A stretch of DNA of 64,000 bases from NCBI GenBank assembly GCA_030704615.1, contig CM060733.1, forward strand, positions 70,246,001-70,310,000, given 5' to 3'. The number at the start of each line of letters is the position of its first letter. Within the stretch, counting starts at the first letter, position 1. The DNA comes from Takakia lepidozioides. Lineage: Eukaryota; Plantae; Bryophyta. Of this stretch, positions 6,945 to 50,890 are shown piece by piece. The notes under the pieces were generated by a model. It did no database searches, had not been told where the DNA came from, and saw only the letters and a list, made by a program, of their open reading frames with translations. Made by a program: the position numbers and the translations under genes.

Positions 6945-7199
6945 AGCCCATGTAGAAGGAGGAAGGGCTTAGTTTTGTCTGCAGTTGGTAAATGTGAGAC
7001 ATCGTGTCCGATCAATAAACCCATCGTACCTCACTTCTGTGTGATTGTGTTTCATTCTGTTGAATAACTGTCGGAATTGGACCACTGTTTACAATTTGAT
7101 GTCTCATTTCTACAATTTGTCTATCCGGATGAATATACCAGAGTAACCGGTATGAGAGTCATGTGACAAAGAATATACCAGAGTAACGCCATGTCGGAC

Positions 7200-7936
7200 A
7201 TTGAAATGCGGCACCGCATTTCCATGTCGGCATCGAAATGTATGAACCGCATTTCAGTGTCGGACAATGGAATGCGGTGCATCATTTCCGTCCAGGTACA
7301 CGAAATACCAACACGGGTCTATAAATTGGACAGACAACGAGGTTGGCATTGCAAATGCGGCGACGCATTTCCAGCTTGGCAATGGAAACTTCTTTTTGGA
7401 CAAGGGAATGCGGTGCCGCATTTCCGTCCAACACTTCGGAAAGTGTGACATTTCCGACCAGCGCGATGGAATGCGTTACCGCATTTCCGTGAGAGGGTCT
7501 GCAAATGGACAAATTGCGATGTCCGTTCTGGAAATGCGGCGCCGCATTTCCATGTCCGTCATCGACTTTTTTTTTACAATGGAATGCGGTGCCAATTTTT
7601 GCTGATGGGCCTGCATCTCGAACAACGACCATCCCCAATATGGAAATGCGGCACCGCATTTCCAATTCCGCCATCTCGACCTCCTTGTTCGACCTCCTTG
7701 TTCGACCTCTGTAAGCGTGGTGGCATCCATGAATGAGCGGGAGAGGCCAAAACTGGCGTGTGGACAAAGGAAATTTTGGAAATGCGGCACCGCATTTCCA
7801 ATCGGCCGATTACTTTTTACTATGCCAACATTGAAATGGAAAATTTAGTCCCTCCCCTATTTTGGAAATGCGGTGCCGCATTTCCAAAAGAGGTTTTTAG
7901 AGTTGCCAAAATTTTGGAAATGCGGGCCCCATTTCT
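7200..7936. repeat. Palindrome array 1: about 12 copies of GGAAATGCGG(CG/CA/TG)CCGCATTTCC with variable spacers
   Basis: Copies near 7203, 7269, 7352, 7405, 7468, 7530, 7642, 7778, 7864 and 7916, plus degenerate ones. Confidence 0.9.
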
Positions 7937-8071
7937 GATTTTGGGAGCGTCGTGGTTTGGGCGATTGTGTGGCTGGAATGCACACTAGAGAGGGTCACGA
8001 ATGTCGGGGAGAATTTCCTTTATATACTCTGGAAGAGAATTTACATTTACAGAGACTTCATTAAAATTCTA

Positions 8072-11000: not shown

Positions 11001-12996
11001 CCGATCCAATGTCAGGAGCTGGAAGAGAGTGGCTATTGCTAGGAAGGAACTTCAGTGCATTGAAACCTCACCTTCTCTTTCGCCTCAACACATGCCGTTG
11101 AGAGGTGATGCAGTTTCTCCAATTGCATGGTCGGCTGCATGGCCCGAGAATAGTGTTTTGCAATCTCGGGGATGAAGTCCTTTCCAAGTGCCGGATCTGC
11201 AATTGCCACCAGCTTCACAAGCTTTGACTTGTATTTGGTTCTGGACTTGACACCGGCTTCCTTCAAGTGCTCAGTCAATGACTGCAACGTTTTGACCTGC
11301 CCTCACTTTCCATGAAGAAGCGTTTGGCATGGGCCAAATCCAGCTTGATGTTTGACTGCCACAAAAAACATGCAGAAGCGTTACATTCGATTCATGTGGA
11401 AAGATTACTGGAAATTGGGGAAGGATGAGCAGAGGGAAATCGGAGGACGACTTACTTCGTATATCACCTCCACCATTCCATCCATAGTGAGACGATACCA
11501 TGTCCGGTCTGTTTTGCAACGGCTTTCTGAATGAGCTCGGGCTCCAGCATTTCCGCAAACATCTGCGGATCAGTGAGACCAGTTTTCCTCACCCTGTACA
11601 GCATATGTGCCATGTGGTATGCACGTACGCATTCTCAGTGACCCTGCAAGGCACACTCTCCAGTTCAGTACACGGAAGCACGGAAACAAACCAGAATGGA
11701 AACCGAAATGCGGCACCGCATTTCAAACGTGCTAGGGAGGGTATGAGTATCTTACGAGTTGAGGTCCGCCATGGCATTCTTGAGCAGGGAGGAGTCTGCC
11801 GCCTTCACCTTGAGGATGACACACTCCACCATGTAATGCCAGCCAATGTGCTTGGCATGGTTCTGCTTGATGTACTTCCACCAGGCAAGAAGTCGGTGAT
11901 TCCCGTCCCACACAAAGAACATTTTACCCGACATATGGCCGAAGTCTGGATCACCTTCAGCGTCGCCTCGAATTCGTTGTTGCGAGTGGTGCCAGTGGGT
12001 ATCCCACGTTGACAATTCATCGGCAGTGGGTCCACGAGTTTCGCCGTCCTCATTCTCAATGGAAAAACGTAAACGCTGCCGATCCCAGACGGTACCCTTC
12101 TCGAAATGCGAACTTGAGCTTATCCACATCTCCGGGAAGGGCCTGCCTGACGATGGGAAGGGAGACCATGCGACAGAGTGGGATTCAAAGAGTCCGCTGG
12201 AATACCCTGCTGCCCAGAACTCTGCCAATGCTACTGTGTGTCTCCTCCACATTTTTATCCGCTGCACTTTTGAAATCCTCCGGAGACATGTCTGTAGGTG
12301 CCGGTAGTGGCTGAGCAGCTGGAGCATCCTCAACTGGAGCTGCACTCTGGGGCCTGTCTGCGGGCAATTCTGCCATTGCAGAGGCTCCCTCCGAGCCTGC
12401 TTGCTCATCGGTGGTGAGGTCTTGCTGCTTGTGAACGTTGAGCGGCAGCACCCTCCTGCGTACCAAATCGACAGAAATGGTCGATCCCATTGCCTTCGCT
12501 GCAGCAGAGTCGGCCCCAACATCTGCAGGCGGGAAATCCTCCAGGAACTGAGCTTCAGCTCGTGGAAGCGGTTTTTTGCGGGAGATTGTTCGGTCGTCGC
12601 CCTGATTGCCTTCTGCTTCCTCATCCTTGCAGGTGAAGGTGTCTCTGCAATGAATCTGTCTTTTACCCTGCTGCTTCATTCGCGTTGGTGGGGGTGAAAC
12701 GGCTGAGCCGGTTCAGAAACCAGTAGAGGGACGGGCTGCTTCTTCTTCGACTTTGCTGGAGAAGGGCCCGACCCCTGCTGGCGATTCTCCATGACCAAAG
12801 AACGCGAGTCGATCTCTGGGCTTTGAAACTTGCCCTTCGAAGCCGCGTCTTTGAAACGCACAGGGCTAGGCCCGGCAGGAATACCCGCGCTCGGGGATCG
12901 GGTGGGTGTACGTGCTGCAGCTAGCTCCTCGGACTCTTCTTGCGGCTCTTCGGATTCTGCGATCCCTCCAGCACGTCCACCTTTCCTGTTAGGCAT
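8072..12996 (-). pseudogene. Multi-exon gene: ParB/Srx-like domain fused to a beta-class N4C/N6A DNA methyltransferase-like domain; several frameshifts
   Basis: ParB-like segment IPLCRMVSLPIVRQALPGDVDKLK...MFFVWDGNHRLLAW at about 12190-11757. Motif IV-like DMIILDIPDG at 9576-9547, followed by LDDRGCVVV. Splicing intron 8945-8844 gives RTRSPAFIQTIMETCTDVEGTVLDLICGTGASMWAGRFSDRHLFAYEED (motifs X, I, II). Acidic C-terminal tail. The start codon is uncertain (12996 or 13198). Confidence 0.75.
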
Positions 12997-13624
12997 GCAA
13001 ACATGTTCTGCATTCAAGTCTCCTAGCATTCAGTCTAAGAATTACAGAAGCAAAATGGGGGGTTCGGTGCTCGATCAGCTGCGCGCAGCCCGATCGCATG
13101 GAGCTCTCACTGGTGGCTGGGTTGCCTGAGTGGCCTGCTGCTCGGAGATGGCAAATCTCCCCTGTAGACGCATCTGCTTTGCTTCCTCCCTTCGGCATTG
13201 GCCTACGTCCGAAGTATAATTTTCAGAGCTTGCGACGGAGGTCTCCTGTATGGTGACGAACTCCCCCCCTCTCAGGTTCGAGCATATAAGAACAGAGACA
13301 GGGAAAAAAGGAAAGAGTGCAGATGGAAGGGCGCGAGAGGGGTGACTGAGGAGACACGACAAAAGTAGATGAAACGGCGGTGATGCACCACTTGGGTTCA
13401 AAAGGGTTGGACGAAAGTGTCTCCCGTGGACTTCGCGTCATAACGAAAATTCGAATGTTCAGGGTACGCCTGCCGTCCGAAAAACAAACATCATTATCCA
13501 CGGTCAGGCCGCGCCGCCTCATGCCCCTTCAGTCAGATAGAGTGCAGACATGTACCGCAATTCCGTTGCTCCACGTGTTCACATTTCAAGGCATTTTCCG
13601 TCCCAGCGTCTGATGAGTTGAGTG

Positions 13625-14976
13625 AAAATGCGAATGCGGCGCCGCATTTCCGTTAAGTACCATCACGAAGCTACACATCCGTACTTGTTGGAAGAAAATG
13701 CGGCACCGCATTTCCATTCCACCTTCACATACCTTAGTTGTTGAAACGAAATATGGTGCCGCATTTCCGTCCCACAGCTCCATGTATGAATCAAAAGGGA
13801 AATGCGGCGCCACATTTCCGTTCTGGAATGTGTCGAAAGGTGCGATTCGACGGAAATGCGGCACAGCAACATTTCAGTTCCCGTGGTTCATGATTTTCAA
13901 TCTCAATCGAAATACGGTACACGACATTACCGCATTCCGTTCCCCTTCACATACCTTAGTTGATGAACGGAAATGCCGTGCCACATTTCCGTTCGGGAAA
14001 GTATAGAGGTCTCACTGAACAGAAATGTGGTGCCGCATTTCCGTTTCTGGAAAGTTTGAAGGTCTCACAATGGATGGAAATGCGGCACCACTTTCCGATC
14101 CCACAACCAGGCCTCATATACAAAACGGAAATTCGGCGCTGCATTCCGTTCTAGATGTCGGAAGTGCGACTCGGACGGAAATGCGGTGCCCGCATTTCTG
14201 TTCCCGTTGTTCACGATTTTTTCATCAGAACGGAAATGCGTGCCGCATTTGCGTTCTGGAATGTTGGGAGGTGCGACTCGTATGGAAATGCGCTGCCGCA
14301 TTTCAGTTCCGATGGTTCACGATTTTCAGTCAGAACGGAAATGCGGTACCACCAATTTCGTTTCTGGATAGTAATGAATGTCCACGCGGTCGGAATTGCA
14401 CTCGGCTCCATGCCATCATGGAAAGTGCGGCGCCGCAATTTCCGTTCTGGAATGTCGGAAGTGCGACTCGGACGGAAAATGCGGTGCCCGCATTTCTGTT
14501 CCCGGTTGTTCATAATCTGAATCAGAACGGAAATGCGTACCGCATTTCCGTTCCACACCTTCACTACCGTGCTTGCTGGATGGGAAATGCTTTACCCAGC
14601 ATTTTTCCGTTCTGAGAGTGTTAAGGTCTCACCCGGCGGAATGCGGTGCCGCATTTCCGTTCTGGAATGTCGGAAAGTGCGACTCGACGAAAATGCGGTG
14701 CCGCATTCTGTTCCCTTTGTTCATGATTCTCAATCAGAACGGAAATGCCGTACCGCATTTCCGTTCCCACCTTCACATACCGTGCTTGCCTGGATGGAAA
14801 GCTTACCTACCGCATTTCCGTACCACCTTCACATACCGTGCTTGCTGGATGGAAATGCGTTACCGCATTTCCGTTCTGGGAGTATAAGGTTTCCCCCGGA
14901 CGGAAACTCGGTCCGCATTTCCGTCGCTCTGGTGCATGACCAAGATGCATACGGAAATGCGGCGCCGAATTTCCGT
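13625..14976. repeat. Palindrome array 2: about 25 copies of the 22-bp palindrome at ~53-bp period, between the divergent ParB-MTase and transposase genes
   Basis: Copies near 13695, 13748, 13798, 13853, ... 14741, 14795, 14851, 14902, 14953. Spacers of ~31 bp fall into about four recurring families. Confidence 0.9.
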
Positions 14977-15899
14977 CCACCAGCAATCGAAAGAATCACT
15001 CGGGACGGGAATCTGGAACCTGAATAGGTTGCATTGTTTCGAAACAACACAATTGCGGCCAGTCTTGATGAGCACAACTTGGTTGTCTAACCGTTTTAAC
15101 TAACAGTACTGGCACTTGTCAGTGCGAACGTTCCTGTCTGCACCGAGAATACTGCTGGATCCACCCTCAGGAGAACTGTCAGAGATGTTATTTCGTCGCC
15201 GAATCGGCCATCATTGGTCATACTTACTGGCTATGGAATCACACCTCCCACCTTCATGCATGTAGCTTGAAACAATACTTTCCACTTAATGTGCGACTTC
15301 CAATCGTCGATGGACTCCGCATGGTGGCTGTGAGCCTTGGTCTGTCGCTATACTGAACCTCGCACTTTGCCAACTTCGTGCAGTGTTCGATGGCTCCAAT
15401 TCCTACGCTATAGTTTGCTGTCCTCCGCACTTGGGAGAGCCTGGATCCCAAACGAGGGAGGACTTTGCAGAATGACTGAAACTCCCTTGTTCCAAATTCA
15501 AGCTCAAACCGGCACATTTATTTGGAAGAAGAAAGGAAGGATGTTCCTGGACAGGTTGACGAGACCATTGTCCGTGCTAGGTAACGACGGAGGTTGCGGA
15601 ATCGAATGGCACGTACCCCCATCAGACACCATCCTGTACCGAGCTTGGGAATGCCCATTCCCTTTTCGAATTCCGGAACCGACAGGCGGCACTGCCAACA
15701 GAGATGGTATGCAACGAAATCATTCCCGACCCTTGACCGTCAAGACCCTCCATAGCTTCTCGTGTGGACGTATTCAACATTTCCGACGAGGAAGATGATT
15801 GAATTGAGGTACCCAGTCCTTCACAAGGAGTTCAAATCCGGCTATGGACGTCTCTGTAGGTGCTACGCATCGTGCCCTCGAGCATAACTCCAACCCGGT

Positions 15900-18800
15900 C
15901 ATGTGCAGCTCATACGACAACATCACCTCGAGATTCTCGCTCCGAGCTGGCTGCTCCGACTATGCCAAATTCCCAGTCAAAAAGATAAGTTCCTGCCTCC
16001 CGAAGTCGATGGCACTGTCATCTCGAGTTTCCACCTGTTTCTTCGGTCAAACAAAGCATCGGGATTGTTAAAAAAACATGGATCGAAAGCATGACGGACA
16101 ACCCTGGTGGTGTGACGAAGACCAGTAGCACGAAAATTGATGATGGTGTTCGTGTACGATATGTCCTATGTGCGGGGAAAGCTGAGGTGCCTCCAATCCC
16201 ACCTGCTTCCATTTCTCTCCAAAGGAGGGCGGAGAAGAAACGAGACAGATTGGATGGCACAATGCATCATCCATTCATTGTCTCCAGCCAAGCTCCTGAG
16301 GGTTCTTTCAAGTGTGCACATTGCAAAGAACCACCGACGTGCATGTCCATGTGCAGAGCAAGCATATTAAGTTATCCATTTGCTCCCGGAATTGACTAGA
16401 GCTGCATACACGTTGGGGTCACTGCCACCCCTTGGCGAGAGGCAAACATGCGTGAGGCTGTGCAGGAAGCACAGACATAACAAGAGGAGGTGAATTGAGG
16501 CCCCGGAGCCAGACCAAAGCAGATTCAGGGAAGGCAGCCACAAGATTCGGCTTGGCAAAATCATGTTGAAGATGGTTCCGACCCGAGAGCCCTTTACCGA
16601 AGACGGATGCGTGACCTCTTGGAGTCCGTCTCGCACTGTTTGTAGTCCGAATGTGCGGAATCACATCGTATCTTGCAAGCAGGAGTTCGCAGGGGGTCGG
16701 AATGTACTCAATCCTGGAGGTGAAACAAAGATGTATATGACTACATGCCAAGGTAGCAGGTTTCCAGGGCAAGGCAGCGAATACTACGTTGTTACATTTC
16801 AAAATGTCGACGTGTGGGCCTGGGAGTGGAGTCGACTTGGTCACTCGCATGACAACTGGAAACTTGTCGATATGCTTGGGTGATGTTTGATCACATCAAG
16901 AGAATTATAAACCAATCGTTGGGGTGACTATGGGTGCGCATGTTTATGACTATCACTCCAAGAGGCTCATTACAAGTGCAATCTGCGAGATGAAGGGGAG
17001 GCACACAGTATGAGATTCATCGGGGAGGGCATAAACGAGCAGATGCCAAGGGGGGATGCCAGAGCCAATTTCAAGGGATTCATGGCAGACAACGCTCAGG
17101 CAATTGGGGAGCGGTGCCGGCGTGTGTACGGTGAGGAACCCAATGTGCCAATGGAGGGGAAAGAGAGATCCTGTGGATTCCATTGGATGCAGAGTCTATC
17201 CCACTACATACCAAATTTGTTGCGAGTCTATCCCACTACATACCAAATTTGTTGCTAGCTCATTCCAGGCTGAACACCGTGTCCTTTGTACGGCGTGGAA
17301 GGATGCACCCACATTTGATGACGCGGAGGTTAAGTTTGCTATCATCGAGGCTTGGTGGAACACGTCAGGTGCAGTGGAGACAACCAATCTGGGAGCATTG
17401 CACAGCTGGTTGGGGTGGTGGCATTTTCGGTATCGACAGTTCGGACAGTACATGCGGGAGGTAGGCTGCTGTCATTTTCGTTCATTTGTCTTTCTGTTAC
17501 GGACATTTCGATTGGTCCCTCACCATTGTTTGTGTCCTTCTAGGAGCGGTGCTTGGATTCCGACACGGACATGCCGAACACGAATATGGCAGAATCGGTC
17601 CACTCCTCCTGGCGAGCGTCTTCTGCCGCACATCTGGTGGACGTAGTGACGGCCACAACGGAGGACATCGACAGAGCAATCATGCAGCAAGCCACGTACT
17701 ACAAGTTCCTGAGCGGCAAACAATGGGGCTTTGGGCCGGACAGGGAGGAATTGTTGGTACGAACAGCTTCGAGGTCCAAGAATCCACACTGAATGGCGAC
17801 ATCATTGCGAGAGAAGATCAAAGGGACGCCTCTGCACCGCAGAGGTGAACACCTAGAGGGGGACGTCCGGACTCGCCCTGTGAGGCGGAGGATTGAAGAG
17901 GAAACCCGGGTGCGAAGAGGATTCCTGGAGATCCGACAGGAACATTTCGGACAGCACCTCGAGGTCCCGTCATGTTGCCGCACAATGTGTCTTCCAGCAG
18001 TGGAAGCCCAAGAAATTCCAGATCGCCGTCGCCTTCAACCGGGGATTTCGTGCGAGAAATTCCCACCGCTCCCTTGCCCCAGATTCGCCCGCTGTAATGC
18101 AGTATGGCCAAGCCATTGTGGAGACGACTGTGTCTGCATCACAGTGGAGAATTGCTCGCACAAAGCCGTCGTTTCGAGGAAGGTGTTCCGCAATTCGTGT
18201 GGATACACGCAACGTTGTTTAGAGATGATAAGGAGGAATCCCAGATGGGCTGTCCCTGCTCCTACTTTTACAGGAAGATTTGTCCATGCAAACCGTTGCA
18301 GAGGCGACAACCACCCAGTTCTGGTTCTGCAGGCACGACATTATGACTTGCGTGTATGGAAAGCCCAAGTACGGCATACAAACAATTGCCAGAGGCTCCC
18401 CCGGTGTGGCCGGTGGAACCAGGCTGCGATCTGAGTCAGGTTTGAGGCCGACGCCCTTACCGCCGCAGGATTTCGGATGGTGCAGCGCACTGACCCCCCA
18501 GACAACCATTTCCGCTTCCACAGCCTCCACCACCGACCCCTGTGAGAGCAAGAACAATTGGGACACGACAGCTCTAAGCATCCTACACACCGTTGGGAAA
18601 CCGAAGATGGCGGCGACCTCCCTCAAAAGTGAACGAGACAAGGATGGGCACTTCGGATGAACTGTACAATCCAGAGCTCGACAGAAGTGCCCCCACCAGG
18701 ATTCGGGCGTGTGTATCAGATGGCCACGCAGGCTCAGCTGTTCGAAATGAGGTGTACACCATCACCATTTCAGAATTACCCACCAGCAATTGCACCGACT

Positions 18801-18968
18801 TCCAGATCATGGCGAACAAGGGGGCATCATACTGCCCTTGCAAGCATTTGTACTACGTGTACCTAAAGAGACTCCGTTGTAATCCACAACTCATCACTTC
18901 ATACATGCACCAGGGTTGAGCCCCCAGAGGTTCACACTCTTCTGAATATGGATCCAGGGGACCAGTGA
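15900..18968 (+). pseudogene. MULE transposase (GCM/WRKY-like Zn domain, DDE core, SWIM finger), heavily frameshifted
   Basis: Motifs in order: Cys/His-rich CAGKLRC...CAHCKEPPTC; MFDH (~16883); NFKGFMADNAQA; SCGFHW (CxxH); WLGWWHFR; intron 17461-17543; PNTNMAESVH; SWIM CTDF...PCKHLY. The 5' boundary is approximate and may extend to ~15330. Confidence 0.8.
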
Positions 18969-19737
18969 GCTTGGCTTGCGGTCCAATACAATGGTACGCC
19001 CATCCTTTCGGATAGTAGAACTGTATGCTGCCAGTACCTCAGACTCTGGCCACAGAAAGGTCCGACATATGTCTTGCCTACCAGTAACCTGTTTTGCTCG
19101 AACTAAGATATTACTATATCAGTCACTTGTTTCCACGTGCATGTATTTTTGTATGTTGGAGGGTTCATGTTTTTCTGCTTTCCGAAAACTTGCTTTCCTC
19201 ATTCGACCTCCGACAAGGAAATGCCCGGCGCCGCATTTCTAAGTATCGTCGTAGGTACTGGTAGAGGCGGCCTTCGCCAACACCAAACCGCTCCAAAATT
19301 TCGCACGTGCGAACCCTAATGCGGCACCTTATTTCCCAGTTCAGTTGCAAACCTTTCCCGCCGAATACCCGAAGAAGACAGAATTGTGAAGTACTGCAGA
19401 CTCTATTGGTGCAGACTCCATTGGTTAAATCGCGGCAAAAGGGTCAGCTTCATTCCAATGTTAAGGCATGTAAAACTGCGGAATACTCTATACAGGCCAG
19501 TATGCGACGTCCTTTTGCCGTGGTATACTGGATTTCCCGTTGCACGGTCACTTATTTCCATGAGCGGATCTAAAAAACCATGAGCGGACTTGTTACTGAC
19601 GACATATCTTCGCCGCATTACATGATCTGGAACGTCCAAAAACGGCAAGGTCAAATAAAAAAAACTATTATTTTAATACTTGTTTAATCTACCGCATTTC
19701 CAAATTTGGAGGAGTCCGCTCATGAAATCCGCGTATC

Positions 19738-19820
19738 TTAGACTTCGGCTCACCGCTCATGCGGCTCATGCGGCTCATGGCTCATGGCTCATGGTTTCTG
19801 CTCATGAAATAGTAAACCTC
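19738..19820 (-). repeat. Right terminal inverted repeat with tandem GCTCATG motifs
   Basis: gctcatgcggctcatggctcatggctcatgg...gctcatgaaatagtaaacctc, followed directly by the TSD. Confidence 0.85.
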
Positions 19821-19828
19821 AGTTCCAT

Positions 19829-21943: not shown

Positions 21944-22760
21944 CATACCATGGTGCTTTCATGATATGAATGACCTGGAATCCCACCCTCCCACCCTGTT
22001 TTTTCAGAGACCCTGAAATGTAATGGGGTATTCAAATGAGACTGTAAACATGAAAGGGAATGTTAGATGGTGTCCTGTAAAGGGGCTGTTTTGTCTTTCA
22101 ATGACAATGACCTTAGCGGTCTTGTCCATGTCTTGACATGACATGTATATCTTCCCTCTCTTTATCTGATCAGTGTACTTAGTGGTTTTTGTACACACCA
22201 TCTACCCTTACCCTTCTCCTTTTCACCTTCTCATTTTGATATATTGACAATTGTTCTCGGGGGGCCTTGACAAAAAGTCACCAAAGGAGGTCCTAGCTGG
22301 AATGAGGACCTCATAGCCCTGGGGTATCAGTCCCCACTACCTCCTCCAATTCCTGCTGTGCAGGCAACCCTCGCACAAGTCACACCAAGTGACTTCCATG
22401 CTGCATTGCAAAAGATGGATACTGAGGCCTTGGAAAATTCAGGTGATGAAAACCCCGTGTTATTACTTGAAACCTTGGCTTTGGAAAATTGGGTTGCACT
22501 TGGCATCATGGCAAATAAGAATGGCAGGTACCTGGAGAAGCTCCAGGAATTCAATACTAAAATGATTGAGGTACTGGAAGATGATGCCGAGGAGCTGATA
22601 CAATGGGAAAAGAAGGGATCAGCGAATGTTCCTTCACGAAGCAGAATGCCTGAAAGATAAGAGTCTACAAAGAAGGAAATGAGAACGTGAGAGGTGGCCT
22701 ACACGTACATGGGCAATTTCGGCGCAGAAATTGGCAGAACAGAGGAAAACCGCAACATAC

Positions 22761-25754
22761 CTTCTGACCATCGTTGACAAGACCCTGCGTGTTGATGCAA
22801 GTCCAGATCTTCTTCAGGATGGGTGTTGCACTTCTCCCCATCCATACTTTGATATCATTCTCAGTGACTTCTCCATCGGCTGCTAGCACAACAACACAGC
22901 CGTCGTCATCCAACATGTTGGCTGCGAACCCGAATGTGTGGCTCCAGTATCTTTCATCATACTTGTTCCACCACGGTAGTTAGCCCAGCCCCTGTAGTTC
23001 CTGCCCATCCGGGATATCCACAAGGATCATGTCGATGGAGGCTTTCACCGCCCTGCCCCCGACTGTGCTCTTTTTGTCGTGGCTCATCGCCACAAAATAC
23101 TCCATCATTTTTGTGAAGCCGGGAGTGTCCTCAATATCATTGCCAGTGGCCTTCCTCTTCTCCTTCCCCTGGTGGGCCTCGATCACCTTCCTCAATCTCG
23201 TTTTCTCCATCCTTCTGGTCAGAGCAGTTAGGAAATTTTCATTAACACACTCCACAATTGTGGGTGTTTTGAGGACTTCCCTGCCCACAATGTGCACCGC
23301 ACGGTAGGGTCTTCCAGGTGCATCCTCGTATAGTGATCTCTTCGCAGCTGAACCCCCGGAGCGCTGGCCCTTGTGAATTTTTGGACGAGGTGTGGCCCCC
23401 TGGGTGTTATCCTGCTGAAAATCGTCGTCGGAATCCTCGTCATCTAGCTGACTATGTTGCTGCTTCTTCTTCTTGGGTGTGGGGCTCTTCGTCTCTTGCC
23501 CTTGTTTGCGCGTTCTTTTCTTCCTGTCCTTGGGCTGCTCAGCTGCCTGCTTCTCCATCTGCTCCTTCGCCACCGCTGTCGCCTTGGCTGACTTTCTCAG
23601 TGCTTTCTGCTTTGCTGCCTCCTCTGCTTTCAAATTTTCCGCGTCCTCTGGTTGGGGATCCAAATGCGCCTTCATAGCCTGGGCATTCGCTTCCTTCTTT
23701 AAGTTAACCTCCGAGAGGTCAACGGTCCCACTTGGGAGATCCACATACCAGGGACAGTCTACCAAATGCTCGGCATGCCACTCCTTCGCCATTACTTCTG
23801 TGTACATCGTACCACAACCTCCAGGTGTCCTCCACGCCTGGAAGAATGGTGGAACCCTTTGAATGGCTCCAGACGGAATGAGAGCAAAATTTATGTACCT
23901 GCAATCACGAGCCAGTTCAACAAAAATCATGCTACTGATGCATCATGCAAGAGGAAGTTCTGAATGCAGAAGGTATTTCGGCACCAAAATACGCAATGGA
24001 CCGTGCCCCAATTACCCAGCATTCACATCTTGCAGAGGGATATTTCGGCGCCGCAATACCCACCGCTGCTTGGCTAAATTCTCAAAACTGCAAATAGGGG
24101 GATGCATTGGTAGCAGATTACCTGAAGAGGACTCGCATTGCCGCTTTGTCAGCACCCTCTTGCTCTTCGATGTATACGCTACGTCTTGCCTTTGCAATTT
24201 CTCTGAAAAAGAGGTTTGCGAAGCGCCCTCGCCAGGACTGCACGTAGTTCTCCATTGTCTCTGGTTTCGTCCAGTCGATCTGTAACTTGAAAGTGGTGGT
24301 GTTGCAATCCAATTGCTCCTGGGAGTGGGTCAGTACTTGCAGCATTGCAGGTCTCCAAAACATTCATGAATTTGAAGAGGAGGAAATTATACCTGAAGCC
24401 ACCAAGTCATCACATTGAGCCAGTCGTTCATTTTGTTGTCTATTGGCTCGATGGGAAAGTGGTACAATAGCTTCGTGTTTGTATGGCCGTTCCAGATTTG
24501 CAGCCACCTTGTCTGCATGGCCTAACATCGGTCAGACAAAAGAACCTCATCATGAGAATCACGAGAAGACACAAAACAAGAACAAACACATGCTAACCTT
24601 CTCCGCCGGCTCAACACCGGACACTGCGATGTGATGAAGTTTCTCCATGGACATTTCCGGTTTCATGGGTCTGGAGTAATGCAGTCCTATCTCCGCCAGG
24701 AACTCGGTACCAAGACCAGGGTCAGCAATTGCAACTTGCTTCATAAGTTTGGACTTGTACTTGGTCCGTGATTGCCTCCCTGCCTGCACAATGTGACTCT
24801 CTATTGACACGTCCGCCTTGTTGGGGGCATCACTCTCAAAGAACTGCCTTTTGGCATAGGCCAAGTCATCCCTGATGTTTGTCTGCATTCCCATACCTAG
24901 CGGATACAGTCAGGCCACTGATCCCTGCAACAAATAGCATTAAATCGGGAAATTTGAGATGAACCTCACCGAATAGAGGATCTCCACCATGGCGTCCAGT
25001 GTTGGTCGGTACCAGGTGCGATCCGCTTTTGCAAGGGACTTCCTGTCCAGCTCGGGATCGAGGGATTTTTGGAAGTCCGTCAGCGGTGTTGTGCCCACTT
25101 CTTGTACTCTGTAGAGTGTATGTGTCAAGTGAGTTTCCACGAAGGCCCTCTCTGTTACCCTGCCATGGAGGAAAAAAAATTGAACAACATGAAAATATGA
25201 TACAAAAATAACCATATTTCGGCACAACAATCCAATTTCCAGTTCATAGAGTGGATGACAGTCAAGAACATTGCCTATTTTGGCGCCGCAATAGGCACTA
25301 CACAAGGATGTAGTACTATACTTACAGATTTATATCCGCCATGGCACCCTTCAGCAATCCTCTGTCCCTCACGTCCACCTTCACGACAATGCAGTCCACC
25401 ATGTAATGCCAATTGATATCTTGCGGATGCATTTCAGCAATGTACTATGTCCAGGCAAGCATCTTGTGGTTTCCGTCTCAGACGAAGAACATCTTCCCTG
25501 CCATGTATGCGAATGTGGGATTAGTCTTCAGAGAGGCTTCAAACTCGGCATTTATAGTGTGCCAGTGGGGGCTCCAATTCTGAAGCTCCTCTGCAGTGGG
25601 GCCCCTTGTGACACCCCTGGTCATTCTCAATGGAAATGTAGAATGTTGCCGACCCCCGTCTGTACCCCTCTCTGAAGTTGTGCTTCAGTCGGTCGATGTC
25701 CCCTGGTTGTGCTTCCCTTACAACTGGAAGGCTGTTCTTTGCATGCTTTAGCAT
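22761..25754 (-). pseudogene. Second, diverged and truncated copy of the ParB/Srx-MTase gene
   Basis: SLPVVREAQPGDIDRLK...KMFFV*DGNHKMLAW; SRTKYKSKL...AIADP; DMILVDIPDG; LDDDGCVVV; PILKKIWTCINT. Intron positions are shared with the 8072-12996 gene. It has nonsense codons and lacks the motif-I exon. Confidence 0.8.
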
Positions 25755-26603
25755 GGAACTCTTGAAGGATGAGGATGGTAAGCTGCAATGGGATCCTACC
25801 TATAGTTTTGGCTTTGTCATGACATCAGGCCTATGACCTGCAATCTGGTTTTTTATATGCAAAAGAGGCTGGATCTCGGCTGTTCAAGCTGCTTGTATGT
25901 ACAAGTCTTGAACCTGCAATTTGACAGGCTGAGTTCACATTCCCTTGACACCTTGTATGATCACATGTCTCGGGGTGAATACAAATGATATGGAATTTAT
26001 TTCATCATGCCCAAGGAGGACTGCTTGGTGACATATTGTGATTCTGACAAATTGCAGGCTGGTCCTTATGCCTTGGCTGATGCATGACCTGCCATAATTA
26101 ATGGCTGAAAAAAGTAAGATGCTGCAACTTGTGGGTCATATCCAAGATGTATGTGTGAAAATGTGTCTTGAAATGGTAATAGGGCAAGCTGGACCATGGT
26201 ACCTTGCCCTTTGCATGACCTCAGCATTTTTATGCTCCTTCAATACATGACCTACTTGGTAAGATATGTGTGCAGGCTGAACCAAGAGGCCTTGCAACCT
26301 GCACAGGGCAGCAATATCTTATCTTGTCCCACACATGAACACATGATTCATTGGCCAAGATGGCCGGATCTCGGGTGTTCAAGATGCTTGCATCCCCTAC
26401 ATGAACAAACCCCGCCCTCCCACCCTGTTTTATCATGACTGATTGGGTGATGTCAATTCATGGGAAGCTATGACAAGAATGGAAATGTTAGATGGTGCCC
26501 TGTTTTGGGTTGTTTATGTCTTTAATTGACAATGACCCTAGTGGGTCTTGTCCATGTCTTGACATGACATGAATATCTTCCCTCTCTTCTGTGCTGCTCT
26601 CTT

Positions 26604-27171: not shown

Positions 27172-27289
27172 AGGGGGCAACAAAGGAAAAAAAAAAAATG
27201 AGGGGGGGGGGGGGGGAGTGACTGAGCAGTAGCAGCTGCTCAGTCACTCCCCCCCCCCCTACATTCTTTTCTTTTCTTTGTTGCCCCCT
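27172..27289. repeat. Fold-back inverted repeat (~55-bp arms with G/C tracts, 6-nt loop), MITE-like
   Basis: agggggcaacaaag...gggagtgactgagcag-tagcag-ctgctcagtcactccc...ctttgttgccccct. Confidence 0.7.
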
Positions 27290-28899: not shown

Positions 28900-31800
28900 C
28901 TAAGAGCCTCTTCGCCTTGCGGCTACTGCCCTTTTTCGAGGGTGGGTCCTATAAAAGCAAGGTGTCATGTGGGACACCAAGTGAGCGTAGAAAGTAGCCT
29001 GTGGTACCCCTAGGTACCCTGGGGAACCGAGGGTGCAATTGAGGTGCTGGATTCCAACGCGTTTGTTGGTGATAATAGCTGTAAGCGAACGGAGAGCTGT
29101 AAGCGAACGGAGTGCTGTGAGGTGAATTGCTTTGAAGCATTTGTGAATGGGAAGAGTGGGAATTTTGAAGTTATCATGTATGTCGGTGATATTGGCATTA
29201 TGAATGCTGCCTCGAGTACCGGCGGTGATGACGGTTAATGGCCCAGTTTTCCAGCCATATCGTCTGATTGCAAGGATAAGCGGGGCATATTTTTGACGTT
29301 TTCCCAAAATCGAGTCCGTGGGGTAGCGATCGTGGCAAAATGTGAATTCAATAAAATGAATGGTGAATTGTGGGGATGGTGAGGTGGGGGGTAGGGTGTT
29401 AATGGGTAGGCCTTGTACAAGGAGTATGTCCGGGCAAAGCCTAGCAGGGCATGAGCATGGTGATCAGGTACATATGCACGGTAGCAGCCAGGGTGGCACA
29501 GTATGGTCGGGTGGCTGACCTTGGTAGGTGCCAGCGTTTATGAGCGAGAACCATCTGGTTTCAGCACGGTTTAGAAAGAGCTTATGGAGATGCCAAACTG
29601 CCTGATTGTGTCGCGTGATGTGAAGGCCATGTATGGTCAGGTGTGTATTTTGGCTGAGAAGATGTGGCCAGGTGTCACGAGCTTGGTGAGTGGTTGAGCA
29701 TAATGGACAGTATGGAGATGGGAACATATGCGGCCAAAAGATGTGTTTGCGCTGGTGACCCATGTATTGGGCGTATCTGAATTTGAGTGTTTGTCGGATT
29801 TGTGCATCAGTGGTAGCATTGGTTAGCCAGAAATAATTTGAGAGTTTATGGTGCAATACATTTGATTGAGTCCATTTTTGGATGTGGAGTTTGGTGTGAC
29901 TGATGGAGGCTGTAGCTTGCTTGTGTGCTTCTCTGGTCAGAGTGGTCAGAAGGTTTCGGATTGGTCTGGGTGCAGGGGGGTCCGGGACGGGGTGGATGAA
30001 CCAGAAGGGGTGGGTATGGGTGATGTGAATAGGGTCGGCTGTGGGTTCGATTGTGGGTTGAGAGGCGCCGAGTTGAGTGAGTAGGTCTGCTTCCTCATTA
30101 CCATGAATGCCAGTGTGCGAGCCGACTTTGAGGAAATGGACTGGGTGGTTTTTGGAAGTGGCTCTTTGGACAATGGCGGTAATGAGGTTGCGGTTGGGGT
30201 GATGATGATGGGAAGAAGGGCGGGAGATGTGGTTTTGAATAAGAAATAGAGAGGTGAGGCTATCAGTGAAGATGTAGTATGAGGGGGGGAAAGCGTCAAT
30301 TAGAGATAGAGCGTCGTGGATGGCCATGAGCTCGGCCCTTAGAATGGTGGCAGGGCCGGGGAGCCGGAGGGCAACACCCCGACCGCTGCCGGCGTGATAA
30401 ATACCATAGCCTGCATTAGGTTTGGTAAGGGATCCATCAGTGTAGTATGAGTTTGTCGGGGGATATTTGAGGATGGTGTTTTGGTAATATATTGCGGGGA
30501 GTGGGGGAGGGGGGGTTGCTGGGCGCGGCTGTGCTATACCCCAGGCTTTGTTTGTTTTGATCCGGGTAAATGTGGTGGTTGTGTGGGTGTGGGGGGGTGT
30601 AGCTGGATAATGGATGGTGGCCTTCATGTTATGAGTTATGGTCAGCAACTGGTCTAGCTGGTGGAAAAAATGTGGCGGTATGTTTGTATGAAGGGGGTTT
30701 TGGACATGTAGAATCAGAGTTAGGGTAGGTTCATCCCTTTTGAGGTACTTGGGAAGAGGGGGCGTATGAGCGTACTTAAGCTGATTTGGGTCAATTGTGG
30801 CGAATAGATTGACCCCTTCTGGGAGTCGTAGAAGAGGGTGGAGGGTGCTAGGTGTATTTTGCTGTGTGAGGATGAGGATTGTGGAGGCAAGAGGAGAGGA
30901 GTGTGCTGCAAATCTTGCCCATTGGAGAGCTTCATGAGCGAGAGGGCCTGAGGGGGAATGGGCAAAGCCCCTACCCTCCCAGATATGTTGGGTAGCGTTA
31001 CCGGTAGCTCCAAAGAGATAATCCCTGTGGTGTGGGCTGGAAAATGTGTGCAGGTCCATAGGACATGTCAGTGGATTGGAGTAATATGAGTGAGTAAGCT
31101 GGAATATATGGGTAAGCAAGGCGGTAATATCTGGGGGTATGGCATGGTGTGTGCATGCCATTTCTAGTCGGGTGAGGGATCGTGGCTTCTTGGGGGGGGT
31201 GTCTTTGAGGTAGCGGTCTACGAGCCAATATAATTCGGTTGCGAAATCTTGTTTTGGGGGTTGTAAAGATTGTGGGTATGAGTTTGCAGCAGAGTACTTC
31301 TCCCACAACCATGTTAATCGGGTATTAGGAATGAGTCCAATGAAGCGGCCGTGTTGAGCGTAAATATGGGAAAGGCGGGGGCCCATGTGAATTAGAGGTT
31401 GGTCATGCTTGACATCTTTGTCGGGGTTACACTCAGTTATGCAGATGTGCACGTTAGGGGCAGAGATCGGCTGATGAACGTATCGATTATCGGTAAGTTG
31501 GGCGGGGGTAATGTGTTGTTGGTGAGTGTGTGCTAAATAGTCCGTGTTGGTATGTTTATGGAAGGAGGTGAGAAGGGCAAGATTATGCTCGGGGTCACAA
31601 TCGTCATGTGGGCCAAATAGGTCATCTTCTATCTGCCATGTGTTGTATTCTGAGGAGTAACCAGCCCATTTACAGTGGTAGTAGGTATCAATACAGGTGG
31701 CACCGAAGGCATCGAGTGATGTTTGGGTTTTGATTCCTAGTATGGCTTCAATGATGTATGCATTACTATTGTCATCGTTGTGTGGAGAAGATGGGGGGGC

Positions 31801-34800
31801 GCTGTGGTGAGTGGTTGGGAGTGGGTGGGGGGGCCTTACATATTACGTGAGAGGTTGACTGGCACATTCGGGTTGTGGTCAGGTTCGGTATGGTGTGTGT
31901 TAGGTATATGAGAGGGGGGGCCGGGTTCGGTGGCTGTGGGGGTATTGGTGGCATATGCCGTTCTAAGTGTTTGGTAGATGGAGGCAGTAGGGGAGGATCG
32001 GTACCGGGGGAGCAGGTCTTGAACCGTATGGGGATAGTATAGACATGGAACATCGCAGTGGAGGGTGCAGGATGCTGAGGGATGGCAGAAGAGGGTTCGG
32101 AGATGGTGCAGGTATCAAGTGGTTTTGGTTGTAGCTCGGGAGAATTTAAGAGTGAATTCGCTTGGTTTTAAAAGTCGATGGCCAGAGGCGGTGGTAAGTT
32201 GGGTGAGGGTGGTAATTTGACGTTCTTTGAAATAGTTGAGGATGGGGGTTTTTAGTTTCGGATGAGAGATGTCGAATTGCGATAAGAAAGGGCTTGTGAG
32301 CCATGCGCGTTCTAGGGGTGACGAGGTGTTAGGGTAATCTGGCAGGTTGGTTTGTATGCTAATTTTCATTTGGCGTAGGATGAGTAGTGTGCGGGCAGTA
32401 GGGGAGTGTAGGCAGGCTCGTGGGTGCAGTGATGGTAGTGAGTAAAGGCCATTGTGTCTTAATGCGAGGTGTTTGAGGAGGCCCTGATAGATGATACCAA
32501 GATGTCCAGGGTCATTGAGTGCTTCTTTTAAATGTGTGCCTAATGTGCGAGCATATGATATGATTAAGGGGTTAGAACCGATTCCGTAGCTGTCAGTTGG
32601 GAGTTGTGTGAGGGCATTAGGGTAACTAGTTGGTAAGCCACATACGCGCTTTGTGAGTTGAATAATGCTTTTATCAAGCTTTTTGATGTCTGGTAATGAG
32701 AAGGGTGCGGCGTGAAATGAGTATTGAATTTGTGTTTGTAGTACGGATTGAATGATAGATAGTTTCGGATGGATGGCAATTGGGGATTTGAGCAGGGCAA
32801 GACTTTTGGTAGCTAGTTTGGATGATGTAGAGTCTTTTTGGATGTGCCAAGTGAGGGAGGGTACTAATTGGATACCCAGGTAGGTGTATGGCTCATCTGG
32901 TCCCAGGAAGGGGAAGGGTGTGTTTTGGTAGTGTACATATAGTTTGCAATGTGAGGCTATGGCTGCTTTAGTGAGCCGACTGTGATGTGTGGCAGCAGTG
33001 ATGGCGCATTTGTGTAAGCTAAGTTCCATGCCTGACCATAGATTGAATTGACATAGTTTGTTAACTTGTCGGTTTAGGTGTTGTGGTTTGTGTGCCAGGA
33101 TGGCGAGATCGTCTGCATATGCTGCAGCTGAGATGTCACTTGAGGAGGTTTTGTATTGATACCCAAGTTTTCCACGGGCGAACCAGCGGAGTAGGGGTTA
33201 TAGGAAGATAATAAATAGGTAAGGACTTAAGGTGTCTCCTTGGATGGTGCCTCGAAGGATGGAGACAGGCGGGGTGGAGCCATAGTAGGCACCAAGTATT
33301 CAGTGGCACTGTTTGTGTAGATGTTTCCTATAAGTTGGACGGCATCAGTGGGGTACCCAAGATCAAGCATGATAGCGAGTAGCCTAGCATGATCTAAGGA
33401 GCCGAAGGCATTTTTAAAGTCAATATATAAGAGATATATGTCTTGCTTTGTAAGTTTAGCGTCTTTGAGGGCGGATAGTACATATTGTATTTGTCTTGTT
33501 GTACTACGCGTAGCTCGGAATCCTTCTTGGGGGTCACTTAGAATTTGGTGTTGTTCGCCATAGCTTGAGAACATTGTGGTGAGCGTGCTGGTGAATAGCT
33601 TATATATGGTGTTGGCCAGTGCTATGGGCCTGTAGTTACTAAGAACTGTAGGGTCACCTTTTTTAAAGAGTAAAATGGTGCGGCTTTGCTTCCAAGAGTG
33701 TGGAATTCGTTTCAGTTTGTAACATAGTTGAAATTTTTTAAAGAAGAGGTGATGAAGTTGAGGGTCCAGTGCTTGAAGTATGGCATTTGGGATAAGATCA
33801 GGGCCCGGGGCTTTAGATTTAGATAGTTTTTTGAGACATGATTCGTAGAGATCTATTGTGAATAAGTCTAGAACGCGGTCCATTGGGGATCCTTTGTTGT
33901 CAATCGAGAAGCCAGCTATATCATGCCATGGGTAGTGTTTAGCTTTACACATACAGTTGGCAATGTGAAGATTAGGGTGGAGACAGTTTGTAACTGTGGG
34001 AGTGTATGTCGAGGATGCTTGTAGCCATATTTCGTGGTTGATGTCCGTTGGATTGGTTAGAAGGTGGCCATGCCTATGTTTGAGACAATCGATTGGTGGG
34101 TTGAGGGCAGGGTTAAAGATGGCTTTGTGAGCTTTTTTGGGGTGGTCGCGCAGCAGTTGGTTAAAAGATGAGACAAATTTTTTGTGATTGGCGGTGGCTT
34201 TTTGTTTGGTAATACTGTAAGCGGCTTTTTTGGCATCTCTTCCACCTTTGGAGAGAGCAGCTATCCAGTTAGGAATATCTTGGGGATTGGCAGGTGGAGG
34301 CATAAGTGCTTGGCATGTTATTAAAGTATTTAGGCAAGTGATACGTGGATCCGATGTCCAGTTATTCCTCGGGTGTATGGGGGTAGTGGTAGGTATAATA
34401 GTAAGGGCGCGTCTGATCGTGTGGTATGTGTTAAGATGTGTTGTCCATGTACGTTTTTGAGTACGGGAAAGGTAGCCACCATTTTGCTTTGAGCGTGGAG
34501 TTTGTGGGATTTCAGGAGGGGCAGAGCAGGTGGCAATGACACATTTGGTCATTTCTTTTATTGAAGTTGTGAGTATGATCTCGGCTTCGATCCAGGCTTT
34601 GTCAGGGGATTGCGCGAGGTTTGCTTCGGAGAGTGTGTCGGAGAGTTTTAGCAAAAGGTGTGAAGATGTTGGTTGGAAGTGCTTTAGAAAGGTGACTATG
34701 TTATTGTGGGGGAATGGGGATAAATTTCTAGATTGCAGCGGTGGAACATGTGTGGGTGGAATGGGTCTAAAGGGGATGAGGGATGGTGGGATGGTTACTG

Positions 34801-36187
34801 AAACGGGGTAATGGTCTGAGTTGCATAGACTATTAATGTGCACATGACTGTTGAGGTATGTTGGGAGGTCGTTATGTGTCTTGAGGTAGAAGCCATCAAG
34901 AAGGCTTAAGGATGAGTAGTTGAGTCCACCTTGTCTAGAATAATGGTGGTCGGCGGGTATATAACGAAGGTGATGTGATTGAGTAAATTTGGCCCATTCC
35001 TGGTCTGCGGGGGATGGAGTTTTGCGTATACCGTTGTATGTGTGACCCATCAGGGCAATGTCCCTGTTGAAATCACCTGCTAGAATGTAGTGTTGGGAGT
35101 CGGTGGAGGTTTGGGTAAGTGTGTTGGAGATGGTAAATAGGATATCAGGGATCAGGGGGAGGTCTTCGGCGTGTGTGGGCATGTACAAGTGTATAAGGAT
35201 AATGGGGAGGAGCGCGGGGAGGTGGAGTTTGATGATTTGAAGGTATGATCGGAGGGGGAGAGCGACAGGTATTTTGACCGTGGTGCTAGGGGAGTGATGT
35301 GTGCGGAGAATACCAAAAGCCACACCGCCCCGGGTAGGATGGTATGGTACAGAGCGTCTAGTTAGGCACTGTGCTGCTGTGAATGAGCTACCATACAACA
35401 TATAATAGGCTGGAAAGAGCTTGTTGATATAAGAACTATTGGGGTTGTGTGTGTTGAGTTTAGTTTCTTGTAATAGGATGATGTGTGGGGATGTAGAGTC
35501 TGTGAGGTGGATTAGGCTTTGAATGCTGGTGGCAAGTGATCCTACATTCCAAGTGGTGATGTTGAGTGAAATGTGTTTGTTGGGAGGGGGAGGTTTATGG
35601 GGATCTAGGGGGTTCTGGAGGCAGGCTACTGAGGGGGTTGTGTGCATTGGGTGGGGGGGGTAGGTGGGAATGGCGTGGTCTGGGGTTGGTATCTAGAGAT
35701 GGTTGTATTGGCTTGCAGGGTGGTAGTGAGAATGTCTCGGGAGAGAAATGGGAATTTGTTGGCGATATCATCTAGTGTTTGTGTGGTACCAGTTGGGTGG
35801 GCCAGGTATTCACCTAGTAGTTTGTGGACTCCTCCGGGCTTGGATTGTAGCAGGTTGAGAGATTCGTGGAGGTCATGGAGGTAGTGTGGGGGTGCTAGGT
35901 AGTTATGGGGTAGTGTGAGTAGATTATGCAGTTGATGTAGTAGTGAGCTGACGCTACTGTCTGGTTGATTCCTGAAGTAGTCGTTGCATATGGAGGATAT
36001 TGGGGAGATGATAATGATTAATGAGAATAGGAGGTGTTGGATAGAGATGGTCCTTGGGGAGATTGTTAATGATGCTAGTGATGGTAGAGGGGCCCGGGTT
36101 TGGGTGAATGTCACCACCACGTAGGAGTATAAGTTTATAGGACGCAAAGTGGGAGGGTGGATGGTGAAAGGAGTGCTTGGAGGCCAA
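28900..36187 (-). pseudogene. Pol polyprotein: 2A-like peptide, APE, RT, chromodomain, PCIF1-like domain, RNase H, CCHC-like finger, RLE; interrupted by stops and frameshifts
   Basis: APE: ITTWNV, ILLQET, LAGDFN, SDHYPV. RT: NYRPIAL, DFKNAF, QGDTLSP, YADD (~33115). RNase H: YYTDGS, AELMAI, FTDS, GNEEAD. RLE: RHNQAV, PDILLV, IEFTFCHD, KRQKY, ITAGTRG. Confidence 0.85.
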
Positions 36188-37960
36188 TGGTTTTTGGTGG
36201 TATCTCCCATGGGGGCAGTGGGTTATGAGGTGGTTCTCAAGGGGCTAGGGAGTAGGGGTGCAGGGAAGATAGTTGGTAGGGAAATGTATGTTGGAAGGGG
36301 ATTTGGTGTCGTCATAATGGGTATGAGTGGAGCTAGTTGTGAGTGTGTGTACGGGTGGTAGTATTGTGATTAGATTCGGGCGGGGTACCATTAGGTGTCC
36401 GCGGGAGTGGCGCCGTAGGGTTTTGTGTTTAGCGGTGGGTGTGGGTATTAGATGGGAGAAAGAGAGAGAGGTGGGTGGGTCGCGGAGATGGATTGAGTTG
36501 GGCATAGGTGCAAGTATGGGTACTTTCAAGTGGGTTAAGTAACGGTCGTGGGTGGTTGGGGGGTGAGTTTGGGGGCTCAGGATAGAGGGGGTTAGGCAAC
36601 ATATGATAGATTGGGGCATTTGGCGAGTGCGGGCTGGGTAAGTACGCGGGATAGTATTTGGTTTATGGGAGGTGATGCTTCTGTATATGAGATGTTGAGG
36701 TAGACGGGATTTGGATGTGGGGGTCCGTTTGCTAGGTCTACTGGCGCAGCAGTACGAGAGAGGGTAAATATTATAGTAGTACATAATTGGAGGTTGAGAA
36801 ATATGTGACAGGGGGTTTTGAAGGAGGGTGGGTATGGGATATGTAGATTGGGAAGTAAAAGAGGATGTGAAGTACAGCGGGCGGATGGCGTCGATAGGGA
36901 GCTCGGTTGAAAAAGGGCGTGATAGAAGAAAATGACGTAGGCGGTTAATGTATTGTGATATAGTTGGATGCAGCCACTGTGCTGGGAGGGGATGGGGATA
37001 GGGTAGGATGGGTGGAATCCATAGGAGTATATTGGGAGGGTGGGGATGGATGAGAGTGGTGGCGGGAGGATGGATGAGTGGGTCGGCGAGGAGTTATGTT
37101 GAATGCGGGAGATGTACATGTATTGGCTATTTATGGTAGGTATGTAGGGAGTGGGAAAGCGGGTGACAGGGTGTAGGTATGCATGGGGAGTCCGTGTACC
37201 GGGGTATAGGCAGGTGGCGGGGGTGTATAGGTTGATTTTTGTACGTAACATGGGAATGGGATGGAGGTAGTTTTGTGGGGGTGAAAAATATAGGGGTAAC
37301 CACCCAGGCCTGGACATGATTGGGTGGCGACTAGTTATATAATAATAGAGAGTGTGTGGTTTTTTGAGGACTGGCGTGGGGGTTAGATATGGTACGAGGG
37401 ATAGGTATGGTAGATATGGTACGGGGTGTATACGGCGGGTAGGGCAATTGAGCGGGTAGGACGCGCTTTTGGGGCGGCCTGGATGTTGTAATTACGGTGA
37501 TAGCAACCCGTGGGAATTGCGGCGGGCTGGTAGGATTTGAATTTGTGGCATTGGTGGGGGGGGGGGGGGGGGGGTTACGTGGCACTGTAGGGCGTGGCAA
37601 GATGTAATGGTGGAATTGGTGCGATTGTGACACATGTGGCAGGGAGGGGAGAGAGTGCAAAAGTGGTGTCTTCGATTGGCAATCCAGGGGGGATCGGGCT
37701 TGTGATGGCGTGAGATGGGGCGATCTTGAGAGTGTAGAGGGTGTAGTGTGGGGGTGCAGAGTAAGTAAAAAGAGGATCTGAACTTAGCGAGTGTAGAGTC
37801 ATGAATTGAAGTTGTAGAAAAAAGGAGTATATAGCATATGAAGTAAGTTGAGCAGAAGAGAGCTATGAGTCCTTTGATAGATGAGATTGAGGTACCATAG
37901 AGATTGCGCGGCGAAGGGAGACTGTGTCATGGGTGCGTAGCCAGAGATTTCTCGATGTGT

Positions 37961-50889: not shown

Positions 50890-50890
50890 C

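Follow-up and report, generated by a model that had tools for sequence, protein, structure and literature searches.

A 64,000-nt stretch of Takakia lepidozioides DNA (the window, whose whole-stretch coordinates are used throughout) contains two copies of a gene that joins a ParB-fold domain to an N6/N4-methylase-like domain, each accompanied by short palindromes of its own type. Two diverged palindrome families are present in this one genome: they have a CCG core in common and differ in their symmetric arms. On balance, these palindromes are constrained, family-specific sites in non-coding DNA of probably Mutator-like transposons with ParB-methylase cargo, and they likely serve to load the ParB-methylase of each family, their predicted binder.

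Two palindrome families in a pair of sister genes

Copy 2 and its palindromes occupy the following positions.

22623 to 25810 (end approximate), minus strand: copy 2, a truncated ParB-fold/N6-N4-methylase-like pseudogene in seven exon pieces
22714 to 22733: palindrome in intron 6 (22665-22760), behind the motif-IV exon; 9 of 10 arm positions pair
23973 to 23992: palindrome in intron 5 (23899-24121); 8 of 10 arm positions pair
24040 to 24059: palindrome in intron 5 (23899-24121); 8 of 10 arm positions pair
25214 to 25233: degenerate site in intron 1 (25160-25325); 4 of 10 arm positions pair, with one good half
25275 to 25294: palindrome in intron 1 (25160-25325), its centre 41 nt past the donor; 8 of 10 arm positions pair

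All five copy-2 sites reported by the first-pass annotation are present where it placed them, the one at 25214 being in effect a half-site. Each scores 17-25 bits against a matrix built from the remaining four (leave-one-out), and no position in the 45.8 kb of window DNA outside both copies gives an equal-scoring match, which places the motif above background frequency within the window.

The corresponding features of copy 1 are these.

8940 to 13029, minus strand: copy 1, a frameshifted ParB-fold/methylase-like gene (GNHR, motif IV DIPDG, motif I DLICGTG; 5' start approximate)
9239 to 9258: palindrome in intron 6
10501 to 10520: palindrome in intron 5 (donor 10571)
11705 to 11724: palindrome in intron 1, its centre 41 nt past the donor
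7203 to 7936: palindrome array 1, downstream of the ParB gene
13631 to 14973: palindrome array 2, where the divergent ParB and transposase genes face away from each other
6068 to 6087: lone palindrome near two small cargo genes

We used 27 copy-1 sites, of which 3 are intronic, 23 lie in the two arrays and 1 is single, so that 24 of the 27 fall outside introns; degenerate copy-1 palindromes also occur at about 19220 and 19316. Read from the centre outward, the half-site consensus is GCCG(A/C)AATA(C/G) in copy 2 versus GCCGCATTTC in copy 1, and the contrasted half-site palindrome forms are GCCGCATTTC for copy 1 and GCCGAAATAC for copy 2. The proposal that copy 2 has arms distinct from those of copy 1 agrees with the base counts at half-site positions 5, 7 and 9. 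Position 7 is the clearest switch (A in 10/10 copy-2 versus T in 52/54 copy-1 half-sites), while C at position 5 is found in 3/10 versus 50/54 and T at position 9 in 2/10 versus 45/54 half-sites, respectively; as the sites are non-independent, Fisher P values for this comparison are too strong.

Copy 2 had been described as a second paralog. It is instead a pseudogene fragment from another transposon family and not a paralog of the host: it carries stops and frameshifts, ends past motif IV (DIPDG) and is without motif I. The ParB exons of the two copies are 49% identical. Public DNA contigs matching copy 2 are numerous, 90-99% alike and far deeper than the DNA immediately to the left, and loose contig ends at 22623 correspond to other family members that extend beyond the copy-2 break. 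Copy 2 apparently belongs to a second, multi-copy transposon family, contig depth not being a copy number. The majority of these contigs differs from the window at 2/40 bases in the two intron-5 sites (one in each) versus 20/~180 elsewhere in the intron, numbers too few to speak of constraint, and both differences within the sites increase symmetry. The family majority therefore keeps the variant arms in a more symmetric form, and the arms are a family trait rather than a product of decay. A dispersed repeat of ~190 bp, which is deep in the contigs, flanks copy 2 at 21979-22162 and 26408-26588 (copies 78% identical).

Six intron positions, predicted from GT/AG boundaries and protein alignment, are common to copy 1 and copy 2. 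Both genes have palindromes in introns 1, 5 and 6, and introns 2-4 are free of them, as expected from the earlier claim of equivalent introns, and the centre of the intron-1 site falls at the same distance behind the donor in both. The introns are otherwise not visibly similar: aligned globally, the three pairs score no more than ~1 standard deviation away from shuffles. Placement in the same three introns of two sister families is most simply explained by inheritance from a common ancestor.

Homologous loci and constraint on the sites

A HMMER search with the ParB exon gave 230 clusters, and a word-based protein search with the same exon gave no match among longer proteins; homologs with a name come from Adiantum and Riccia. 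None of the 51 candidate stretches from viral contigs was confirmed as a homolog, and prokaryote genomes provided one homolog locus, which contains introns and is therefore likely plant contamination. At this locus (L081, 1-4691), on a contig filed in a cyanobacterial assembly, a largely open ParB-methylase gene is accompanied by a palindrome array with spacings of 106, 107 and 109 bp. For comparison we took the best 80 of 288 metagenome matches that had been confirmed. These loci contain introns, are redundant in part and mostly measure 1-4 kb; together with the two window copies they make 82 loci.

De novo palindrome families with at least 3 sites were found in 37/82 loci versus 2/164 shuffles, a count that includes many redundant loci and some repeats of another kind; most of the families are located upstream of the ParB motif, at a distance of 0.7-2.5 kb. 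The majority have C, C and G at half-site positions 2-4 (a mean of 71% each among 17 representatives) and differ in the arms, and the CCG core is retained over tree distances of >2.5 changes per site. The idea that introns 1, 5 and 6 carry the motif throughout the family was rejected, as the mapped homolog introns are mostly without the family palindrome. It is absent from intron 1 in all 49 homolog loci with this intron mapped, and when the two window copies are added, making 51 loci, the only palindromes in intron 1 are those of copy 1 and copy 2 and an unrelated sequence in L034. The equivalent of intron 5 contains an array in L026/L027 and none in L001, L043, L054 or L055, and arrays follow earlier exons in L012 and L022. 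The pattern of the same three introns is limited to the sister pair of copy 1 and copy 2.

Arm variants follow protein clades among the homolog loci, in line with the expectation that motif and protein trees agree. In cross-scans, matrices built from single loci match chiefly their own protein clade, giving a largely block-diagonal picture on the tree, and the farther apart loci stand on the tree, the more their arms tend to differ (rho 0.36, P 0.002, 31 loci). Assigned to 47 labelled rows, which leave out 35 rows without an assignable motif, 17 arm classes require 17 changes versus at least 27 in shuffles; once near-identical rows are collapsed, 16 changes are required on 30 rows versus at least 18. 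The pairs L020/L024 and L026/L027 were considered as exceptions to the tree and dismissed: their de novo picks are side palindromes, and the clade half-site is kept in both. Co-evolution with a dimeric DNA-binding protein had been proposed to explain the family-specific arms. The part of this proposal that concerns constraint and clade tracking stood, but tracking is expected from linkage, with the transposase an equally linked candidate. Because gene and motif share one transposon, clade tracking proves little about co-evolution.

Evidence for constraint comes from the sites themselves, which are 70-87% alike while their flanks are no more alike than random DNA (0.29-0.32, whether introns are compared with arrays or the copy-2 sites with one another, versus 0.29 for random sequence). 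In copy 1, decay has struck the central CpG in 16/24 scorable sites versus 6/52 core CpGs (P 2e-6). Two homolog loci, L020 and L026, retain one invariant half-site per repeat unit in units otherwise ~65% alike. The arrays concerned (L020 1-800; L026 1-800 and 2900-4193) are no longer palindromic and space their half-sites by 74 or 85 bp. The modal spacings of 16 lineages (32, 51, 52, 61, 64, 73.5, 74, 75, 85, 105, 105, 109, 127, 127.5, 136 and 138 bp) peak at a period of 10.55 bp in a scan of 8-14 bp, with a mean cosine of 0.76 that 0/5000 random sets attained. Flanks, CpG decay, invariant half-sites and phasing point to a protein that reads double-stranded DNA, rather than to hairpins or drift. 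They do not name the binding protein.

Candidate readers of the palindromes

The N-terminal domain adopts a ParB/Srx fold in models of two homologs (P0012 and P0171), whose best fold matches are PadC, KorB, SerK, Srx and ParB-N (root-mean-square deviation 2.5-2.9, 93-99 aligned). In the VIA structure comparison the top 8 rows are all ParB/Srx (Z 5.2-7.2, below 8; next 3.8), and Foldseek assigns this fold a probability of up to 0.96, neither model having a Foldseek match that reaches E 0.001. The GxxR motif is present as GNHR in at least 90% of alignment A4 and in copy 1, and as GNHK in the broken copy 2. The C-terminal domain resembles N6_N4_Mtase (PF01555), with a Pfam E of 5e-5 for the Riccia homolog, below the curated cut-off, and an atlas match of 0.94 with 181-185 shared features. 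In copy 1 motif IV precedes motif I, as in a PF01555-like domain. Pfam gave no ParB or methylase match on any window exon. The catalytic motif of N6/N4 amino-methyltransferases is (D/N/S)PP(Y/F), with an aromatic residue. A conserved PxWN behind motif IV might substitute for the aromatic residue missing here, and, judged from these motifs, catalysis by the methylase-like domain is doubtful.

Copy 1 lies within a transposon, element 1, together with the transposase gene.

4785 to 19820: element 1, a 15-kb DNA transposon with terminal inverted repeats of a CATGAGC unit
15300 to 18919 (bounds approximate), plus strand: broken gene of a putatively Mutator-like SWIM transposase, in head-to-head orientation to copy 1

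Element 1 is flanked at 4777-4784 and 19821-19828 by a target-site duplication of 8 bp, AGTTCCAT. Target duplications of Mutator-like elements (MULEs) measure 8-11 bp; the terminal inverted repeats and the duplication agree with a Mutator-like element, although an 8-bp duplication together with a SWIM domain fits Zisupton/KDZ as well. No element ends are preserved around copy 2, terminal repeats and a target duplication being found for element 1 only. Transposases of Mutator-like elements are DDE enzymes with SWIM at the C-terminus. The transposase gene, in which we take the Mutator motifs to be recognisable, is 42% identical to a SWIM gene at 727-2151. The latter has a weak Pfam SWIM match (E 0.0066, below cut-off), and no Pfam MULE domain was matched by the window transposase genes. 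More fragments of this transposase type lie at 727-2151 and about 50995-51403, the second inside the span of hAT repeats described below. Element 1 holds three further unannotated genes (5248-6084, 6244-6944 and 8072-8626); two small cargo genes within 5248-6944 are head-to-head and ~45% identical to each other. Neither Pfam nor any of the 80 homolog loci, most of which are short, provided a match to the cargo genes. Among 25 open reading frames (ORFs; 700-25800) scanned against Pfam there is no ParA-type partner, the neighbour being the transposase. The CpG observed/expected ratio is 0.83 in element 1, 0.26-0.42 in its flanks and 0.85 in the window hAT, and given this last value the high CpG of element 1 is uninformative as a sign of methylation loss.

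We favour the ParB-methylase as the protein that reads the palindromes, a view we hold with somewhat better than even confidence, because the sites occur both within the ParB gene and on either side of it, because red-algal ParB genes of EnSpm-type elements are accompanied by inverted-repeat arrays, and because the ends of element 1 use CATGAGC, a unit unrelated to the palindromes, and a tested Mutator transposase binds at terminal repeats. For that transposase, AtMu1, the chromatin immunoprecipitation peaks reported in the available text lie at the terminal repeats (bioRxiv 2026.08.24.746577). The family ParB-methylase is predicted to bind the palindrome as a dimer; half-site positions 2-9 would be read by the protein, the central base pairs would act as a spacer, and in-phase spacing would place several dimers on one helix face. 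Arms and protein would drift together and each family would come to address only its own copies, like VANC proteins, while introns would offer permissive non-coding space that spreads sites through the gene. The bound ParB-methylase likely marks or shields its own element. Its ParB domain may act as a nucleotide-gated clamp, spreading outward from the palindromes, and its methylase-like domain, with a non-canonical motif IV, may write N6-methyladenine (6mA) or N4-methylcytosine (4mC), or merely bind and flip bases. The output of the system is the least certain part of this explanation. More speculatively, transposons of non-seed plants may possess a eukaryotic parS-like addressing system, in which a ParB-fold clamp on phased family palindromes combines spreading with methylase marking or shielding and many orthogonal protein-palindrome pairs are built on the CCG core; this extension is possible, and we put it forward tentatively.

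Several observations weigh against the ParB-methylase reading. Both window genes are broken, and in the 13/13 rows where motif IV was found it reads D-[ILF]-P-[DETI], the aromatic of DPPY/F never being present. The helical region 254-430, behind the ParB domain, matched no helix-turn-helix (HTH) or known DNA-binding fold and gave only generic bundles (atlas <0.9), and Srx and SerK are examples of ParB/Srx proteins that bind no DNA, according to the sections available of PMC12704722. The readable neighbours of the homologs (L030, L047, L040 and L073) are all of the same transposase type, which leaves ParB and transposase inseparable. Phasing is not specific to ParB, as the window hAT carries its own palindromes at 53-bp spacing. 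Regarding the tree, arm classes were assigned by eye with the tree already in view, 8/31 profiles were chosen by filtering on the core, and pooling of the modal spacings was manual; the tree itself is a quick one of 204 columns with long-branch warnings. The palindrome of L030 is AT-rich and without the CCG core, the core of L065 is shifted, and the motif of copy 2 is at least as close to that of the distant L033 (0.32) as to that of its sister copy 1 (0.35). The hAT element itself (45190-53210; DUF659 and Dimer_Tnp_hAT) has palindromic subterminal repeats with a 53-bp period, equal to five helical turns.

The transposase could itself be the reader: the palindromes would be internal sites of the Mutator-like transposase, used for self-activation or assembly of the transposition complex, with the ParB gene as a mere host. 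The largest array occupies the promoter region that the ParB gene and the transposase share, and the transposase is linked to the motif as tightly as the ParB gene is; the window hAT provides a precedent for phased palindromic subterminal repeats, and a Mutator transposase needs no second protein to activate its own family, which it does sequence-specifically, as described in the accessible part of the report (bioRxiv 2026.08.24.746577). We nevertheless consider this reading unlikely, given terminal repeats built of an unrelated unit, the peaks of the AtMu1 transposase at terminal repeats in the same partly available source, the position of the sites around and inside the ParB gene and not at the element ends, and the pairing of ParB genes with inverted-repeat arrays in red-algal, non-Mutator elements, as far as their published account is available.

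It is improbable that the palindromes reflect no protein code at all, having spread by duplication or gene conversion, drifted and been co-inherited, with a function as RNA or DNA hairpins, for example in splicing. Many homolog arrays are young tandem repeats, co-inheritance fully accounts for the tree tracking, and the sites self-fold by construction. However, the sites are alike despite unrelated flanks, CpG decay hits the centre and spares the core, the core survives the long tree distances given above, the partnerless half-site of L020 and L026 cannot form a hairpin, most sites are intergenic with homologous introns usually lacking them, and the spacing is in helical phase. We give equally little weight to another protein as the reader, be it a small cargo gene product or a host transcription factor. 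Element 1 does contain three further genes, to which array 1 is adjacent, but the arrays recur in homolog loci where the cargo genes are unmatched (80 loci, mostly short), and a host factor would not switch arms by family within one genome.

Elsewhere in the window, a long minus-strand region at 29400-44500 is retroelement-like (endonuclease, reverse transcriptase and RNase H-like ORFs, identified by eye), with a GC skew of up to +0.65, and at 27172-27289 runs of A and G form a 50-bp inverted repeat around a loop of 18 nt.

Relation to known systems

A literature search for plant ParB-methylase transposons with palindromes found only two algal papers, subscription journals lying mostly outside its coverage. 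Plavaka (EnSpm) PAG3 of Bostrychia moritziana (bioRxiv 10.1101/2025.02.11.637652) resembles the present elements, from the portions of the report available, in its N-terminal ParB-like cargo with tandem inverted-repeat arrays alongside and in the proposal that the cargo both binds and modifies its own element. It differs in that it belongs to a red-algal EnSpm element, ParB is fused to a 2-oxoglutarate oxygenase and the methylase has a gene of its own. The available portions on PAG3 mention no motif sequence, intronic sites, clade-specific arms or phasing, and the supplements may give the repeat sequence. In the text available for the giant element Sola1-1_Ec32 of Ectocarpus (PMC12477816), a ParB-like domain and an N4C/N6A methyltransferase occur in the same domain order as here, on the strand opposite to the transposase, and self-binding as well as self-modification was proposed. 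This brown-algal element is a Sola and not a Mutator-like transposon, 'palindrom' occurs 0 times in the main text, and the likeness is one of description.

In function, the precedent is the anti-silencing system VANDAL/VANC of Arabidopsis (PMC5735166), a Mutator-like element with a cargo protein and family-specific motifs in intronic, intergenic and terminal non-coding DNA, which, in the account as available, were amplified in tandem repeats and evolve with the protein. Family-specific motifs in introns and intergenic repeats are likewise found in Takakia. VANC motifs, as given in the sections consulted of that paper, are 8-9 nt long and non-palindromic and VANC removes host methylation, whereas here the motifs are 18-20-bp palindromes and the cargo pairs a ParB/Srx fold with a methylase-like domain; binding is proven for VANC, while for the Takakia proteins it is predicted.

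Bacterial ParB-parS and Noc with its binding site (NBS) share the ParB/Srx N-terminal fold with GxxR and palindromic sites (PMC7383237, PMC12704722), and ParB and Noc paralogs have switched specificity on related palindromes (PMC7383237), according to the parts of these papers available. A canonical ParB-parS clamp has its HTH behind the CTPase domain, binds CTP, is loaded upon contact with its site and slides. There specificity is provided by an HTH on 16-bp sites, whereas here no HTH was matched, the sites measure 18-20 bp, the setting is a plant transposon and no ParA is seen. The copy-2 arms at 23973-23992 resemble the Noc binding site TATTTCCC-GGGAAATA as given in the part of the paper available (PMC7383237), with two extra central bases, which is probably a coincidence. 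ParB-methylase fusions are described in phages and algae, with no plant transposon case in the text available (PMC12704722, PMC4738411).

As far as these sources are available, algal ParB-methylase cargo, ParB cargo with inverted-repeat arrays, family motifs of the VANC type and ParB/Noc specificity switching are already known; the side-by-side pair of palindrome variants in one genome, with the constraint and homolog tests, is what this window adds. The accessible algal accounts propose that ParB cargo binds nearby inverted repeats, without a defined site or test. A candidate site is now defined and constrained base by base, with 17 arm classes along the protein tree, so that the proposal can be put directly to experiment, reciprocal controls included. 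If the parS-like addressing system suggested above exists, genomes would yield a natural recognition code that might find use in targeted epigenome editing. Should ParB be the reader, these transposons would represent a second, independently built case of VANC-like self-recognition and a parS-like code in a eukaryotic nucleus.

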